Shown here in pieces: positions 48,190-57,650 of a DNA stretch of 64,000 nt; the first letter of the stretch is position 1, and the number at the start of each line of letters is the position of its first letter. A program made the translations under genes and the position numbers. The DNA comes from Squalus acanthias. Its lineage: Eukaryota. The notes under the pieces are model-generated. The model was not told the DNA's origin. It saw nothing but the letters and a program-made list of their open reading frames with translations, and searched no databases. The stretch is taken from positions 30,568,001 through 30,632,000 of the forward strand of contig CM059432.1 in NCBI GenBank assembly GCA_030390025.1, given 5' to 3'.

Positions 48190-49108
48190 TCTTAGGCAGT
48201 CCCTCGGAACCAAGGATGACTTGCTTCCACATTAAAAATGAGTTCTCAGGTAACTGATGAGTCCAATGCGGGACCTACAGTCTCTGTCACAGGTGGGGCA
48301 GACGGTGGTTGAAGGGGCGGGTGGGTGGGGTGGGTGGGGTGCTTGGGTTGACGTGCGCTCCTTGCGCTGCCTGCGCTTGGCTTCCGCTTGCTCCCGGTGA
48401 AGAGACTCAAGGTGTTCGGCGCCTTCCCGGATGCTTCTCCTCCACTTTGTGCGGTCTTGGGCCAGGGATTCCCAGGTGTCGGTGGGGATGTTACACTTTT
48501 TCAAGGAGGCTTTGAGGTGTCCTTGAAGTGTTTCCTCTGCCCACCTGGGGCTCTCTTGCCGTGTCAGAGCTCCGAGTAGAGCGCTTGTTTTAGGAGTCTC
48601 GTATCGGGCATGCGGACGATGTGACCCGTCCATCGGAGCTGATCGAGCATAGTCAAAGCTTCGATGCTGGGGATGTTGGCCTGAGCGAGAACACTGACGT
48701 TGGTGCGCCTATCCTGCCAATGGATTTGCAGGATCTTGCGGAGGCAGCATTGGTGGTACCTCTCCAGTGCTTTGAGGTGCCTGCTGTACATGGTCCATGT
48801 CTCTGAGGCATACAGCAGGGTGGGTATCACTGCTGCTCTGTAGACCATGAGCTTAGTGCCGGGTTTGAGGTCCTGGTCTTCAAACACTCTCTTCCTCAGG
48901 CGACCGAAGGCCGCACTGGCACACTGAAGGCATACGAGAGCATGGGCCTTACACTAAACATCCGTAAGACAAAGGTCCTCTACCAACCTGCCCCTATCAC
49001 ACAATACTGCCCCCCGATTATCAAAATCCACGACAAGGCCTTGGACAACGTGGACCACTTTTCATACCTCGAGAGCCTACTGTCAACAAGGGCAGACGTC
49101 GATGATAA
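48190..49108 (-). mobile_element. RTE-clade LINE, 5'-truncated with 5' inversion
   Basis: TKLMVYRA.V.PTLLY.SETW...LRWTGH..RM and a C-terminal C2H2 (CPTC...H). Inverted segment ~48925-49108; TSD agctatggat (48180-48189, 49109-49118). Confidence 0.9.
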
Positions 49109-50326
49109 AGCTATGGATAGTTCCATGATGGAACTCAAGAATACAAAGGTATAAAAGGAATGTGGTGGTAGATGTAATGGTTATGTTACTGGTTTGCTAA
49201 TGTCCTTCAGAGAAGGGAACTTGCCACCTCTACTCAGTCCTGTAATTCTGTTTCATACATTGTGGCAGCTCTTTATACCCTCTGAAATAGCTGAGCAAGA
49301 CACTCAGTTATACCAATAATGACTAGGTAGACATTATTGGACAGGAGTCCCACCACTACCTTCTCAGGTTAGCTATCGACGGGCAATAAATACATCATTG
49401 CCTTCTGAGAACAATTTTATTTTTAACTATTTGAAATTTGCTCCAGCTGTTAGCTACCTCCAACTAGATTGTACAGGTATGGAAAAATCTCCTCAATAGT
49501 TATCACACTCGATTATTAGGGAAAACCAACAAGACTGAGAACAGCTGTCATTGTTCCCTATAAAAATAGCACCACACCGAGTGCATCCGAACATCGTCCA
49601 ATGCCGCATTGTCGATTGTTCTGGAATTTTCTATATATTGAACCATTCACTGCAAAATTAGAACGATTCTCAAGACACTTAGAAAGCCTTTGAAGCAACT
49701 GAGAGGTACTTAATCATGGTGCAGTCAGCTTGGCATGTGGAGTACGACAGAGCTTTGTTTATTTTCAGAAGTTACTGTCTCCTGAATATCAGCCTCCACA
49801 AGACAGCATGCTTTCAGTCCCAATTAGCTGTCATCCCAGAAGTCCAGAAAGCATTAACTGCATTCCTTTCATTTTTTTAAAGATGGGACTCAAGTCTTCA
49901 GTAGCTGTTCTGAAAAACTGTAAAGTAAATTAGAGAGATGGAAACCTTCTGACCTTTGTGTTGTGTAAGAAAATATTTTCTGATTTACTATCATCAATTC
50001 AGCTCTTTCTGCTCATTTGTGCTTTCTGTCTTGGGCAAGTGACAATCCCTCTATTTCTCACTGGATACAGATTTTGTTTATTCATTTTATAATTCATTCT
50101 TGGGGTGTGGGCTTCACTGGCAAGGCCAGCATTTATTGCCCATCTCTAGCTGCCCTGAGCAGGTGGTGAAACAAAAGAATGGCTTGCCAGGCCACTTCAG
50201 AGTCAACCTTGCTGAGGGACTGGAGTTACACATAGGCCATATCAGGTAAGGTCAGCAGGTTTCCGAAAGGACATTCACAAAGCAGTTGCAAATTTTTATA
50301 ACAATTCACAATAAATTCATGGTCAC

Positions 50327-53300
50327 TGTGGTAACACTTTTCAGCTTCCTGTATGACATCACTTCCTGTAATCAGTCCAGGATAAATACTGGACTGATCA
50401 GTTAGCTCTGGAAGAGGCATAGGGTAAGATCTCTTTTGTATGCAGCACCGTTTTAAGTTGATTAAAGCTTACATTAAGTTTACCACGCGTAAGGCTCATT
50501 CTTACGACAATTTAATCAACTTTGGAAAAACTTCGCACTCAAACTTTTTGGACGAACTCGGAGTTAAGGATCCAGGGAATCACCCATCATGGAAAACATC
50601 CTTAAACCATCGCGTCTTGACTTGGACCCAAACACCCCAGCAGCCGGTAAGGTGTGGAAACACTGGTATCGCACGTTTGAGAATTTTCTTGAGTATTGCA
50701 AAGCTGATGATAACTCAAAGTTGCGGATACTCATCAACTGTGTCACCCCGAATGTATTTCAGTATGTGGAAGACTGGGACAGTTATGAGGAGGCAATTCA
50801 GACGCTTAAGAGACTATATACTAAGACACCGAATGAGGTCTATGCTAGACATCTACTAGCTACAGCCCAACAAGGGCCGGAGGAATCCATTGATAAATTC
50901 CTCCAAGAGCTTCGCAGACTTAGTATGGACTGTAACTTTCGGGCAGCCTCAGCTGAGCTATACCGCGAAGAAATGATCCGTGATGCGTTCATCTGCGGGC
51001 TTGCCTCCCCATTTATACGCCAGCGTCTACTGGAAAGTAAGACACTTGAGCTGCAGAGAGCTTATGACCTGGCTTGCTCTCTAGATCTGGCAAAAAGAAA
51101 TGCAGACCTTTTTACAGTGCCCAGACCTCGGTCTGCTGCCTTAACTACAGTCAGGCAATTTAAGAGGCCACAGGTGAACTCTATTAGGGAGGACTTTATC
51201 CCTGACGATCGATCTGATGACTTCACTGATGAAGAGGATGATGACCCCACTGTGGCAGCCTCTTGGCAATCTAAGAAATGCTTTTTTTGTGGTGATGAGT
51301 TTCACCCTCGGAGATTCTGCCCTGCTCGCAATGCGTTTTGCAGTCATTGCAACAAAAAGGGTCATTTTGTAAAGGTTTGCCTATCAAGAGCCTCTACGAG
51401 GGCTTATCAAGCTAAGTCCTACCGAACTGCCCCAGTAAGGGCCTATCAGGATGTTCCAACTAAAAACTATCATGCTTCCTCTCGGGTTTTTTCTCGAAGA
51501 AACACACCTAGAATTTCAGCCACTCTTTGTGCAACGACACCAATTACAGCTGCTTGTCCTCAGAACCTATTCCATGCAGCTACAAAAGCATCAATTAATG
51601 GACATACTTTAGATGCCTTAATTGACTCAGGTAGCACTGATAGTTTCATTAGGGAACAGACTGTTGCACAGTTAAAGCTACATGTTTTTCCATCGGACCA
51701 GGCAGTTGCGATGGCTCAGTCATCACTTAATACCAGAATTTCTGGCTTCTGTGTAGTTGAAATAATGCTTAAAGGTCACAGGTATCCCTCCACCCGGCTT
51801 TCGGTGCTCAAGGACTTATGTAGTGATCTTATCTTAGGGCTGGATTTTCAAAAGCAGCATAAGAAGCTTACCATTGAGTTCGGCGGATCCAAACCTGAAC
51901 TCACTATTTCTAATATACGACCTCGATTACCGTTCTGTGCCTTGTCAGCAGCTTCACTGGATGAACCCTCACTGTTTGCCAGTATCCCTCCTCGATGCAA
52001 ACCGATTATAACAAAGTCACGCCGTTTCAGTCAGGAAGACCAGTCTTTTATTGCGGCTGAGATTTCTCGGCTTTTAGCAGAGGATATCATCGAGCCTTGT
52101 TCGTCGCCATGGCGCGCCCAGGTCGTTATTGTTAAGAACCCTCTACAACCTCACAAGAAACGGCTGTGCATTGACTATTCACAGACCATCAATCAGTATA
52201 CGGACTTGGACGCATACCCATTGCCGCGCATCGATGATATGGTTAATAAATTGGCTGAGTACACGGTGTTCTCGACTTATGATCTGAAAAGCGCCTATCA
52301 TCAGGTACCCTTGAAGGTCTCAGACAAGCAGTATACAGCCTTTGAAGCCAATGGGCGGCTGTATCAATTTCGTCGCCTCCCCTTTGGGGTCACTAATGGA
52401 GTGGCTGTCTTCCAGCGAGCAATGGATGACCTGGTCAAACAGGAAGACTTGAAGGATACGTTTCCTTATCTGGACAATATTACTGTCGCAGGTCGCAATC
52501 AGCAGGAACATGACGCCAATCTCCAACGATTTTGGGATGCACTCCAGCACCGTAATTTGACATTGAATGCGGCTAAATCCATTGAGTCACAACCAACTAT
52601 CAACATCCTTGGCTATTGTGTGGGCAATGGCATCATTAAACCTGACCCTGAAAGGCTTCGCCCACTCCAAGAACTCCCGCCACCTAAGAATCCGGCCTCC
52701 TTGCGCCGGGCCCTCGGCCTGTTTGCATACTATGCGAAATGGATTCCTAACTTCTCGGACCGAATCCAACCTCTACTGAAGGCCAGCATATTCCCACTAG
52801 ACACAACGGCTGTTGCAGCCTTTAACCTCCTGAAAAAGCAGTTGGAGAAAGCGGCTCTTCACTCCATCGATGAGAGTCTTCCTTTCGTGGTTGAGTGTGA
52901 TGCCTCGGAGGTGGCAATCTCAGCCACTCTGAATCAGGAAGGTCGTCCGGTGGCATTTTTGTCCAGGACTTTTCAAGGGGCTGAGCTACATTATCCTCCA
53001 GTCGAGAAAGAAGCTACAGCCATCATAGAGGCAGTACGGAAGTGGAGTCATCTCCTGGCTCGCCAGCACTTTACCTTAATCACGGACCAGCGATCGGTCG
53101 CCTTCATGCTCGATAATCGAAAACGGACCAAAATTAAAAATAATAAAATCCAGCTTTGGCGGCTGGAATTGGCCTCTTTTGGTTACACCATCCACTATCG
53201 ACCTGGCAAGGAGAATGTGGCTCCGGATACCCTCACACGAGCATTCTGCTCCGCCATGGCACCCTCTACGCTCGTAGACATCCATGATGGGTTGTGTCAT

Positions 53301-54746
53301 CCAGGCGTTACTCGCATGCTGCACTTCGTGCGGTCCCGAAATCTCCCATTCTCTACCGGGGATGTAAAGAAGATGTGCTCGGACTGCAGAGTCTGTGTGG
53401 AATTGAAACCTCGGTTTTTCCGCCCCTCGGGTGGTATACTCATACATGCGACCCAGCCAATGCAAAGGCTTAGCATCGATTTTAAGGGGCCGTTGCCCTC
53501 TTCGACTCGCAACACTTATCTATTAACAATGGTTGATGAGTATTCTCGTTTTCCGTTTGCCTTTCCCTGCCCCAATATGCTGACAACCACGGTTATCAGC
53601 TGCCTTGAACAGGTATTTGCTTTCTGTGGCATGGCATCCTATGTTCATTCAGATCGGGGCCCTTCTTTTATGTCGGGAGAACTCAAGGCCTATCTCTCGG
53701 AACGGGGTATTGCTGCCAGCAAAACGACGCCTTATCATCCGGTTGGGAATGGGCAAGTCGAGCGTTTTAACGCTATCATCTGGAATGCGGTACGTCTGGC
53801 TTTGAGATCTCGGGGCCTACCCAACCAGCATTGGGAAGCAGTACTTCCAGACGCATTACACTCCACACGGTCCCTCCTTTCGACCGCCACAAATACGACG
53901 CCTCATGAACGGTTCTTCCGATTTCAGCGTCGCTCATCCTATGGGACATCTCTCCCGTCGTGGCTGACTGCACCGGGACCAGTGCTACTCCGAAGATATG
54001 TCCGGGCGTCTAAGAATGACCCCCTGGTAGATGAGGTTGAGCTCACTGACGTCAACCCTACCTACGCCTATATTCGGTATCCTGACGGTCGGGAATCTAC
54101 CGTGTCATTGCGGGATCTGGCTCCCTGCCCGCCGAAACATAGAGGGACACCAGGGGATGATATTGTACCAGGCACATCTCTGGGCTTGCCAGGTGCCTCT
54201 CATCATGATCGGGATCTGACGCCGGCTGGTACCTCACTCCAGCGTGCCGACCTGGGGCAGACTGACTATGAGCCCGTCGGGGCTCGCACGCGCAGCCACG
54301 ATCAACCCTGTACCGTACGCTCAGAAACGGATCTGCCACAGCCCTGCCCGACACCCATTCGGGTACCAGTACACAGTCAGGATCGTTCTGACCCCTCACA
54401 GAGCGGGCTGGAGCACTCGGACTCTGGTCCATGGCCCGCAGCGGGTAAACGGGCTAGGGGCCCTCTACCGCTACGAGAACCCAAACGGGTGCGGCTCTCC
54501 CTCATCCAACGGCTACGAAATGGAGGGAGCATCCCGGCCTCCTAATCTTTTGGGGGGGGAGAATGTGGTAACACTTTTCAGCTTCCTGTATGACATCACT
54601 TCCTGTAATCAGTCCAGGATAAATACTGGACTGATCAGTTAGCTCTGGAAGAGGCATAGGGTAAGATCTCTTTTGTATGCAGCACCGTTTTAAGTTGATT
54701 AAAGCTTACATTAAGTTTACCACGCGTAAGGCTCATTCTTACGACA
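50327..54746 (+). mobile_element. Intact Ty3/Gypsy LTR retrotransposon (Mag-like Gag)
   Basis: Identical 183-bp LTRs (50327-50509, 54564-54746, TG...CA), 5-bp TSD GTCAC, and a purine-rich PPT (G-run + agaa) at 54552-54563. Confidence 0.98.
50589..54545 (+). CDS. Gag-Pol polyprotein (Gag with two zinc knuckles, aspartic protease, RT, RNase H, integrase), 1318 aa
   Basis: CFFC..H..C/CSHC..GH..C knuckles; LIDSGS protease; RLCIDY, DLKSAYHQ, LPFG and YLDN in RT; CDAS...EKE...TD RNase H; HHCC plus D-D-E (IDFKG, SDRG, VERFN) integrase. Confidence 0.97.
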   Translation: MENILKPSRLDLDPNTPAAGKVWKHWYRTFENFLEYCKADDNSKLRILINCVTPNVFQYVEDWDSYEEAIQTLKRLYTKTPNEVYARHLLATAQQGPEESIDKFLQELRRLSMDCNFRAASAELYREEMIRDAFICGLASPFIRQRLLESKTLELQRAYDLACSLDLAKRNADLFTVPRPRSAALTTVRQFKRPQVNSIREDFIPDDRSDDFTDEEDDDPTVAASWQSKKCFFCGDEFHPRRFCPARNAFCSHCNKKGHFVKVCLSRASTRAYQAKSYRTAPVRAYQDVPTKNYHASSRVFSRRNTPRISATLCATTPITAACPQNLFHAATKASINGHTLDALIDSGSTDSFIREQTVAQLKLHVFPSDQAVAMAQSSLNTRISGFCVVEIMLKGHRYPSTRLSVLKDLCSDLILGLDFQKQHKKLTIEFGGSKPELTISNIRPRLPFCALSAASLDEPSLFASIPPRCKPIITKSRRFSQEDQSFIAAEISRLLAEDIIEPCSSPWRAQVVIVKNPLQPHKKRLCIDYSQTINQYTDLDAYPLPRIDDMVNKLAEYTVFSTYDLKSAYHQVPLKVSDKQYTAFEANGRLYQFRRLPFGVTNGVAVFQRAMDDLVKQEDLKDTFPYLDNITVAGRNQQEHDANLQRFWDALQHRNLTLNAAKSIESQPTINILGYCVGNGIIKPDPERLRPLQELPPPKNPASLRRALGLFAYYAKWIPNFSDRIQPLLKASIFPLDTTAVAAFNLLKKQLEKAALHSIDESLPFVVECDASEVAISATLNQEGRPVAFLSRTFQGAELHYPPVEKEATAIIEAVRKWSHLLARQHFTLITDQRSVAFMLDNRKRTKIKNNKIQLWRLELASFGYTIHYRPGKENVAPDTLTRAFCSAMAPSTLVDIHDGLCHPGVTRMLHFVRSRNLPFSTGDVKKMCSDCRVCVELKPRFFRPSGGILIHATQPMQRLSIDFKGPLPSSTRNTYLLTMVDEYSRFPFAFPCPNMLTTTVISCLEQVFAFCGMASYVHSDRGPSFMSGELKAYLSERGIAASKTTPYHPVGNGQVERFNAIIWNAVRLALRSRGLPNQHWEAVLPDALHSTRSLLSTATNTTPHERFFRFQRRSSYGTSLPSWLTAPGPVLLRRYVRASKNDPLVDEVELTDVNPTYAYIRYPDGRESTVSLRDLAPCPPKHRGTPGDDIVPGTSLGLPGASHHDRDLTPAGTSLQRADLGQTDYEPVGARTRSHDQPCTVRSETDLPQPCPTPIRVPVHSQDRSDPSQSGLEHSDSGPWPAAGKRARGPLPLREPKRVRLSLIQRLRNGGSIPAS

Positions 54747-56689
54747 GTCACTTTTATCAATACCGGCTTTTTATTTCCAGATTTTTAAAACTGAATTCAA
54801 ATTCTCAAACCGCCATGGTGGGATTTGAATTCTGGATTATTAGTCCAGGTAGTCGGAATTACTCGTCCAGTAACATAATCACTTCACTATCGTACCTCAT
54901 TACTCCCTTTCTGCAGGCATTGACTCAAAGAGATCTGGGGGATGGGGGTTCAGAGCCTCCCAAATTGCTGCCCGGGCATAAAATTGGCACGGGGCAGGGC
55001 CTGTTATAGAAACTGCCTCATTTTCATGCCCATTGATTTCAAGGAACCTGGTTTGTATTATAGCAAGTGTGCATACTGATTACTTGTTAGGATGTAGTTT
55101 TGCTCATCATTGTTGATGGGTACTTTTCAAACTGCCCATCTCATAATCCTGTTAAGATAGGGTTGCTCTGTGGCGGATCGCCACCTAAACGGGCGCAATC
55201 CACTTTTCCGTCCGTGGACAATAAATCGGGCACCTTGCCTTTAAGGCGCATGCTGCCTTTAAGGCAGGAAAAAAGGAGTGGGCGTCGCCCTCAGTGTGAA
55301 CTTAAAAAGAGCGGGCGTCGCCCTCAACCAGTAGGGTTTTGCAGAGAGAAGTTGTAGCAGCCATTTTGCCAAGGAGTATGTAATTAAAAGCCATGTGCTC
55401 CACATATTGACTCGGCCTCAATTCGTGCTTCGCGGCAGCCACAATAGCTCCTTAAATATTACATTTGATTTTTAACAGAGAAGACCTGGCATTACAGTAA
55501 CAGGAAGCTGTGGAAACTGTCCTGAAACATGTGAGACAAGGGGAGGTGGAAACAAAGTTATAGAACAGTAAAGAGGATGCAGAAAACCCCAGGCTATGCT
55601 GCTGGGAAATGGCTGCATCTTTCGCAACCCACCACATATTGGTGCCTCATGCAGCTGGTGCTATAGTGGTTCAAATGGGTTCAAATCCCATTATAGCAAG
55701 TTATGAAATTGCATTTAATAAATCTGGTTATTTATGGGTTGGTTCTAGGAAATAATGCCTATGACAGTATTGCCCATATCTTGAGAATGAAATAAATTTT
55801 AAATAAGGCAACCAGTTAAGTTGCTGCGATACAGCCTTCGAGAAAGCAGAGCTGAAAAGTAGTGTACAAATTCTGTTCACTTTTCATTGTGAATGATTAT
55901 ATACTCAGGCACAGCATGTTACTGACAGGGCAGTCAACATTTACTACACTTGTTGGCATTCAACTTGTAATTGGATGGCATGACCAAGTGTAACTTTTCC
56001 ATACAGTACAGGCACTTGAGTTGAGGACCCAGAAAGTATTCCTGAGTCTCAGATGTACTTACTGTAAGCATTGGACTTAACTGCTGTTACTGTCAGTCGT
56101 GGATTACTTGCATGCTTTATCGCTTTTCCACAACGTACATTGCAAAAACAAGTTTATAAATATCACGAGTGGTTATGAAACATCTCCAATACGGCAAGCA
56201 CTACTTCATTGCATTGGAAATCAAAGCAGAAAATGCAAGTCACTTGGGCGGAGGCGGGAGGATTTTCCATGGGGTTCAATTGCTTTAATGTCCACTGTAA
56301 CTCTGGCGGAAGAGCCGTGGTCAGCCCGGAAACCCGCCTCCCCCCCCAACCCCCCGCCAATTTACTCCTTGTCAGAACTGCTGAGAGATCGTCAACGGAA
56401 ATGTTAACCTACCTTCCTGGATTAACCCTGGATTAATAGTTAACATATGCATGGTTAATGTAATCTTCTGGATTGGTTTTGATTGCCTGAGGGGGTCATA
56501 GAGGAATTTTCCGGAGGTTTTTTTCACTTATTGGCCCTGTTTTTTTTCTCTCCCAAAAAATTATATGGCTACAGTGGGGGAAGAAGTGGGGTGGGGGGGT
56601 GGGGGGAAAGGAAGTATCTAGTCATGATGCTTCAGGCCTCATGAGTGTGGGGCAGGCTTGATGGACCAGCTGGTTTTATCAAGGAAATG

Positions 56690-56930
56690 GTAGCATAGTG
56701 GTTATGTTACTGGACTAGTAATCCATGAGACCTGGACTAATGATCCTGTAGAGAACACAAGTTCAAATCTAACCATGGTAGCTGGGGAGTTTAAGTTCAG
56801 TTAATAGATAAATCTGGAACAAAAAGCTACTATCACTAATGGTGACTATGTAACTACTGGATTGTTGTAAAAACTCATCTGGTTCACTAATGCCCTTTAG
56901 GGAAGGAAATCTGCTGTCCATACCCAGTCT
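56690..56930 (+). mobile_element. tRNA-derived SINE fragment (second family)
   Basis: gtggttatgttactggactagtaatcc...gttcaaatc...ggttcactaatg; related pieces at 49170-49400, 50090-50326 / 54752-54885 (-) and 58790-58940. Confidence 0.55.
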
Positions 56931-56944
56931 TCCAAAAGGCTTTT

Positions 56945-57650
56945 GATAAGTGACAGGAAACAGAGAGTAGTGGTGAATGTTTTTTTTTCGAATTGGAGGA
57001 AGGTATACAGTGGTGTTCCCCAGGGGTCGGTACTAGAACCACTGTTTTTCTTGATATATATTATTGAGTTGGATGTGAGTGTACAGGGTACAATTTCAAA
57101 ATTTGCAGATGGCACAAAACTTGGAAGTATGGTGAACAGTGAGGAGGATAGTGATAGACTTCAAGGGGACATAGACAGGCTGGTGGAATGGGCGAACACG
57201 GTGCAGATGAAATTTAACATGGAAAAGTGCGAAGTGATACATTTTGGTAGGAAGAACGAGGAGAAGCAATATAAACTAAAGGGTACAATTCTAAAGGGGG
57301 TGCAGGAACAGAGAGACCTGGGGGCATATGTGCACAAATCGTTGAGGTGGCAGGGCAGGTTGAGACAGATTTAAGATGATTGGCAGAAGATCCAAAGGCA
57401 ACATGAGGAAAAACTTTTTTATGCAGCGAGTGGTTATGATCTGGAATGCACTGCCTGAAAGGGTGGTGGAGGCAGATTCAATCATGGCTTTCAAAAGGGA
57501 ATTGGATAAGTACCTGAAGGAAGAAAAATTGCAGGGGTATGGGGAAAGGGCAGAGGAGTGGGATTAGCTGAAGTGGTCTTACAGAGAGCCGGCACAGGCT
57601 GGACGAGCCGAATGGCCTCCTTCTGTGCTGTAGACATTCTATGATTCTGA
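56945..57650 (+). mobile_element. CR1 RT 3' fragment with internal deletion
   Basis: Close match to 34965-36045 but lacking ~35390-35760. Confidence 0.85.

Follow-up and report, generated by a model that had tools for sequence, protein, structure and literature searches.

The window (the whole 64,000-nt stretch of Squalus acanthias DNA analyzed here) carries an intact and very young Ty3/Gypsy LTR retrotransposon at 50327-54746, whose 5' and 3' LTRs are identical; all of its features given below lie on the plus strand. The target-site duplication GTCAC at 50322-50326 is repeated at 54747-54751, and between the two copies run the 183-bp 5' LTR (50327-50509, TGT...ACA), a single gag-pol open reading frame (ORF) of 1318 amino acids (50589-54545), a polypurine tract (54552-54563), and the 3' LTR (54564-54746). 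The ORF encodes Gag followed by protease, reverse transcriptase (RT), RNase H, and integrase, which is the Ty3/Gypsy domain order, and the TG...CA LTRs, target duplication, and polypurine tract are end features of the same group. Among relatives with a solved structure, the closest is the Ty3 RT (E 8e-49). The C-terminal tail of the ORF (54130-54545), about 130 amino acids rich in Pro, Ser, and Arg, has no Pfam match, and most relatives have an ORF about 100 amino acids shorter than that of the window element.

An earlier note on this DNA, made from the letters alone, had described Mag-like twin zinc knuckles and no visible chromodomain. Both CCHC knuckles are present (51279-51380; amino acids 231-244 and 251-264), as they are in 63 of 70 aligned relatives, and the likeness to Mag holds for these Gag knuckles only. 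We found no Pfam chromodomain at E 0.1, and none is listed for any of the 120 nearest relatives listed. The RT active-site motif is YLDN (52467-52478), aligned to YLDD of Ty3; the 120 nearest proteins listed comprise 90 with YxDN, 22 with YxDD, and 8 without a match. YLDN is found here in an actively multiplying family, although the like change in Ty3 (D214N) is lethal for transposition while keeping some polymerase activity (PMC5371799). Among the papers listed in a literature search, none dealt with YLDN RTs. RTs of the YxDN type offer a lead of their own into polymerase chemistry, and any link to priming is conjectural.

The best 150 Gag matches in the 3.7-Gb genome are all 100% identical, which indicates that the element family is young. 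The junction between LTR end and primer site occurs 2247 times genome-wide, counting together subfamily A, to which the window element belongs, and its sister subfamily B (96% identity overall, 84% in the LTR). A third family in the genome, family C, was found through a protein search and has about 70% DNA identity. The relatives that carry names are elements of corals, shrimps, a copepod, and a tunicate.

Several further arrangements were seen along the way. Four LTRs at a 4247-bp spacing (G000:C1:562430-575197, L114-L117) form a tandem array of three elements with common LTRs; such LTR-sharing arrays have been described for integrase-independent insertion of Tf1. At L083 (9004-11901, minus strand), a Gypsy element with integrase before RT, a Gmr1-like order, adjoins a member of the clade. 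Animal retrotransposon contigs also turned up inside bacterial metagenome-assembled genomes (L207-L215), likely as host contamination. In the window itself, 48232-49154 and 56901-57374 are fragments resembling RT regions of non-LTR retrotransposons, which we take to be RTE- and CR1-like, with several dispersed short repeats close by.

Pairing between the LTR and the primer site

The earlier note had proposed that the element is primed by its own RNA, on the grounds that the sequence following the 5' LTR is complementary to the LTR. This complementarity is exact: after one unpaired A (50510), the putative primer-binding site TTTAATCAACTT (50511-50522) is the reverse complement of AAGTTGATTAAA (50455-50466) in the LTR, hereafter called the arm, which ends in the poly(A) signal ATTAAA (50461-50466) and has its second copy at 54692-54703. 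The 12-mer occurs three times in the window (both LTRs and the site) against an expectation of 0.01, and the primer site is the only one of 4054 internal start positions with at least 10 bases complementary to the LTR. The TGG of a tRNA-type site, which the note had reported missing, is indeed absent from the primer site, and one TGG begins at +14 (50523-50525), counting from the first base after the LTR. No Rfam match was found in 50300-50620 and no tRNA gene within the window.

Folding of 50455-50530 gave -16.5 kcal/mol (z -3.04, equaled by 0 of 200 shuffles), with weaker z in longer windows (-2.57, -1.07, and -1.68). The helix between arm and site is predicted at 0.88 for RNA starts at 50411, 50440, and 50455 alike. 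A short hairpin, GCTTA/TAAGT (50467-50479), begins at the first base after the arm and is predicted to stack on the primer helix; a hairpin of at least 4 bp from this base occurs in 14 of the 19 families described below (sum 79, shuffled maximum 72). A second hairpin in U5 (about 50487-50505) contains the stem CGTAAG/CTTACG (50488-50493 and 50501-50506) to which the earlier note had drawn attention. Its halves are complementary and lie between arm and site as described, but it did not hold up as a general feature (loop-only z -2.57 to +0.7).

Covariation across families

LTR/site covariation in related elements had been suggested as a check, and we assembled relatives accordingly. Of 80 metagenome loci, 44 with possible 5' sequence were screened for LTR pairs, as were six of nine further loci. 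Twenty-five metagenome loci gave a scorable LTR end, the rest having no 5' end or no recognizable LTR end and being left unscored; with the three families of the window genome this made 28 loci, in which the LTR end was fixed by an LTR pair in 22 and by motif, a partly circular procedure, in 6. They were reduced to 19 family representatives with 15 distinct 11-nt cores (LTR ends set by motif in 6 of the 19).

Pairing was kept throughout. Over the 12 positions from +2, 20 loci pair at all 12, seven at 11, and one at 10, and the register is fixed: +1 pairs in none of the 19 representatives and +2 in all of them. From +2 to +12, 204 of 209 possible pairs form, compared to a mean of 157 and a maximum of 179 when arms and sites were permuted; from +13 to +17, the figures are 67 of 95 against a mean of 37 and a maximum of 55. 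None of 10,000 permutations reached either value, although the families are related and these counts are therefore not probabilities. From +18 to +25, pairing is at chance (39 of 152, permuted mean 39). Because the LTR end is set by the 3' end of the primer, annealing has to occur no more than a few bases from it. The abrupt start of pairing at +2, together with the ragged far edge, fits the 3' end of a primer.

Matched changes fall in separate supported subgroups of a quick tree, whose outgroup was Gmr1-like only: one in L035, L036, and L039, and another in L037 versus L059 and L033. L033 and L059 share 98.2% identity across 4.2 kb; compared to L059, L033 has G>T in each of its two LTR arms and C>A in the site. 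TGG is absent from the first 8 nt after the LTR at all 28 loci. The TGG near +14 of the window element is missing in 17 of the 18 other representatives, with none earlier than +29, and at this position the sister subfamily often has TTG A; 13 of the 19 representatives have no TGG before the first ATG. One of 30 family C copies (L170, G000:C4:34.39 Mb) has 5 extra bases between LTR end and primer site.

Variants within the genome

Within the shark genome, compensation was tested genome-wide at one pair. None of eight primer-site variants was compensated, all having a normal arm, and none of seven 5'-LTR arm variants (two of them duplicates), all having a normal site. Most of these uncompensated variants are probably mutations that arose after insertion. 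One of the seven arm variants carries its change in both LTRs and still has a normal site, the outcome to be expected when new copies take their arm from the parent's 3' LTR. The mismatch of subfamily B at the 12th base is corrected in two otherwise normal copies, compared to one or two per transversion in the control; correction is thus about at the transversion background, which argues that a long primer tail is not routinely copied. Variants within the genome lend self-priming no support.

Fold-back copies and LTR deletions

Plus-strand DNA that ends in a site copy could, we predicted, run on along LTR sequence. Among 2253 A and B junctions with the first 11 site bases intact, six deviate at the 12th base: three continue into the reverse complement of the LTR, two have a single T>A, and one has an internal deletion. 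One family C junction, from a set left uncounted, also runs from the site into the LTR reverse complement. In subfamily B numbering (TATA-like box at 67, arm at 141), the inverted stretch reaches back to 96 in L165, to 35 in L166, and to 1 in L167, while L179 has 297 nt inverted through U3, the polypurine tract, and the 3' untranslated region (UTR) before returning to the plus strand. Perfect 5-bp target duplications flank L165, L166, and L179 (4 of 5 bases match at L167), so at least three of these fold-backs are integrated products of reverse transcription. Only one of the four, L165, ends near the RNA start predicted from the TATA-like box (box +30), and it does so within a 7-of-8 microhomology; the other three extend into U3 or farther, which means that they were not templated by a normal RNA 5' end.

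Four elements (seven pattern matches) carry a deletion in both LTRs that runs from an AGCTT close to the start of the LTR up to the one at the 3' end of the arm. In all four, the AGCTT that holds the deletion junction is the one across which the cut is predicted, between 50466 and 50467. Such deletions would be expected if minus-strand DNA ended at the predicted cut and landed on a 5-nt look-alike. The four may not be independent: two of them double as fold-backs, and the three with a common 40-nt duplication may come from one source. Together, the fold-backs and deletions, as read from inserted copies, favor plus-strand DNA ending at the site and minus-strand DNA ending at the arm, but they are no proof of which RNA was the primer.

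A variant of subfamily B (L165, L166, and L181) carries a 40-nt copy of the LTR start and a second polypurine tract just 5' of the 3' LTR. At L023 (about 1382-1501), a subfamily A copy is inserted within the LTR of a B variant with this 40-nt duplication.

Where the RNA may start

The earlier note had predicted, on a Tf1-type model, an RNA start at about 50455, the first base of the arm. This now appears doubtful. Eight runs consulted for RNA evidence consisted entirely of contigs and showed no RNA start, RNA end, or poly(A) junction. The element has a TATA-like box, GATAAATA, at 50381-50388, and family C has TATAAATA in a similar place; in families A, B, and C such boxes lie 74, 73, and 91 nt 5' of the arm, whose -30 region has none in these families. 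The box would put the RNA start near 50410-50413. Scanning 11 other LTRs gave only two weak matches; of the 14 LTRs scanned in all, 10 have no such box 5' of the arm apart from two weak cases. Pairing above chance to +17 indicates that RNA upstream of the 12-mer is needed in many families. On balance we lean slightly toward an RNA start upstream of the arm, about 45 nt before 50455, as judged from these sequence features. An Initiator at the 5' end of the arm was by eye indistinguishable from background, the only invariant base being the G that pairs with +11 and the LTRs being T-rich.

GATAAATA fills the 8-nt loop between the halves of a perfect 10-bp inverted repeat (50371-50398), and TATAAATA also lies within a short inverted repeat. 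We considered a primer built by splicing inside the LTR and rejected it: the next AGs follow the GTAAG at 50424 by just 22 or 34 nt. (The arm's AG, checked in this connection, is present in 15 of the 19 families.) In L059, L037, L055, L090, and L091, TTACCT recurs in a T-rich stretch 30-45 nt 5' of the arm; it is the reverse complement of a 5' splice site (AGGTAA) and may mark an antisense splice donor.

Self-priming and its alternatives

Taken together, the covariation, the fixed +2 register, the lack of TGG, and the fold-backs strengthen the earlier note's proposal of self-priming, which still rests on sequence. We consider self-priming in some form likely, and the 5' copy of the arm the probable primer. 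By this route, the 5' arm (50455-50466) would fold onto the site from +2 to +13, with weaker pairing to +17, and the RNA would be cut directly 3' of ...AUUAAA, at the junction with the small stacked hairpin, probably by the element's own RNase H, as in Tf1. RT would extend the new 3' end over the unpaired A, U5, and the 43-nt loop, and the short minus-strand DNA would jump to the matching R stretch, which sits at the RNA 3' end with the hexamer on one side and the poly(A) site on the other. Plus-strand DNA would end in a copy of the primer, which may rarely anneal to or run along LTR sequence and so give rise to fold-back copies. A difference from Tf1 is that the RNA may, by a slight preference, begin upstream of the arm, leaving a primer 5' tail that needs trimming.

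The primer could instead be the arm copy near the RNA 3' end, on the same or a co-packaged RNA and cut after the hexamer. Three of the four fold-backs reach U3, and L179 was copied from 3'-end RNA where it crosses U3, the polypurine tract, and the 3' UTR; an upstream start would also leave R sequence for strand transfer. However, plus-strand DNA that mis-anneals to 3'-end RNA would yield the same kind of copy, and the prediction for the local 5' helix is the same whatever the start. The LTR deletions, moreover, break at the arm 3' end, as they should if that is where the first DNA stops. We therefore regard priming by the 3' arm as unlikely, though the least unlikely of the alternatives.

It could also be that the helix serves to hide the 5' poly(A) signal while some host RNA acts as the primer there or close by. 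Covariation would also follow from selection for pairing of any kind, and the hexamer is predicted to be paired in its 5' context (unpaired 0.00-0.11) and partly open in its 3' context (0.07-0.65), so the masking that the earlier note raised is indeed predicted for the window element. Across families it is less general: AATAAA or ATTAAA is present in only 11 of the 19 arms, two more have lost the hexamer through a change that is not compensated, and in two it sits in the loop, outside the helix, yet the eight arms without a canonical hexamer still pair. Masking does not need a fixed start at +2, a host RNA would have to track 15 cores, each matching its own LTR, or be replaced by as many host primers, and the fold-backs represent plus-strand DNA switching at the end of the site. 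We judge such a scheme improbable; masking is a plausible extra, likely a side benefit in most families according to the predicted folds, and not the cause of the fixed register. Least probable of all is priming by a tRNA or half-tRNA with an incidental LTR match. The TGG at +14 of the window element speaks for it, but a tRNA would need TGG at the site, where none of the 28 loci has it within 8 nt, and most representatives have none before the first ATG. A half-tRNA faces the same difficulty as other host RNAs, in that the site follows its own LTR over 15 cores.

A broader reading, which we offer tentatively and think possible rather than likely, is that a widespread animal Gypsy clade (cnidarians, crustaceans, tunicates, and vertebrates) invented self-priming independently of Tf1. 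It would use an internal primer, in a helix that reaches 16 bp at most (roughly what the RT cleft spans) and that hides the 5' poly(A) signal and, cut on both sides, yields the primer; its RT would carry a natural Asn for the second active-site Asp, a change lethal to Ty3 transposition, and the fold-backs would be a fossil record of intermediates. If self-priming is correct, a large group of animal elements without chromodomains primes itself, with more than 2000 near-identical copies in one vertebrate-sized genome; independence of tRNA would then have arisen again, and these elements would be freed from control by tRNA fragments. It would also account for the failure of tRNA-based annotation to find a primer site. 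Exact cut-site predictions and a ready compensatory test come from the natural covariants and fold-backs.

Comparison with known systems

To our knowledge, self-priming is proven only for Tf1-type chromoviruses of fission yeast. Mag elements usually use tRNA primer sites. The window element and its relatives share two CCHC arrays and animal hosts with Mag and differ in having no TGG in the first 8 nt at any of the 28 loci. Most of the relatives resemble Cigr-1 of Ciona, with its one ORF of about 1200 codons, in their ORF. Two CCHC arrays are usual in Micropia/Mdg3 as well as in Mag (PMC2577118), and chromoviruses were unknown from protostomes or urochordates as of 2008 (PMC2577118).

Efforts to name the clade gave little. 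The Atlas names were generic (Gag/CCHC) and the cluster names uninformative, the supplements of PMC6238403 had clade labels but no motif matches, and viral contigs yielded no relative. The excerpts of two surveys of animal Gypsy clades (PMC6238403 and PMC8556966) do not mention primer sites. In the literature covered, which took in few subscription papers, little from Repbase or GyDB, and neither the Saci-2 nor the Cigr-1 description, we found no report of self-priming in a group of animal Gypsy elements without a chromodomain; it may have been mentioned before.

Skipper has neither a tRNA nor an LTR match (PMC5006619). Self-priming has been predicted for Tj1 (PMC4600332), Tf2 (PMC5341516), and, in plants, Tcn1 (Gypsy) and TAR (Copia) (PMC6317226). 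The window element resembles Tcn1 and TAR in having at least 10 bases, from 0-5 bp after the 5' LTR, that are complementary to the LTR (PMC6317226). These belong to other lineages and hosts, and both are cases of prediction only; to the extent that the prediction holds, they show that self-priming arose outside Tf1/sushi at least once.

Tf1 itself primes with the first 11 nt of its own RNA after an RNase H cut (PMC7175516), and about half of its cDNA retains a single-stranded copy of the site at the 3' end (PMC11042837), which fits the fold-back copies seen here. Like Tf1 and Tf2 of Schizosaccharomyces pombe, Tj1, and Tf1/sushi elements generally, the window element has no tRNA site and at least 11 bases just 3' of its 5' LTR that pair with its own LTR. 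It differs from Tf1/sushi in its lack of a chromodomain, its twin CCHC knuckles and YxDN RT, and a pairing that reaches up to 16 bp and usually covers the poly(A) hexamer; compared to Tf1, its flanking duplex is a local hairpin, and its RNA may start upstream of the primer. The Tf1 RNA forms a three-duplex structure, and the Tf1 group has chromodomains (bioRxiv 10.1101/2022.12.06.519325). A corresponding "pretzel" pairing between the loop and the sequence after the site was at chance here (122, compared to 126 in shuffled sequence). We conclude that the element likely works like Tf1 but, lacking both the pretzel and the chromodomain, is not placed here within Tf1/sushi.
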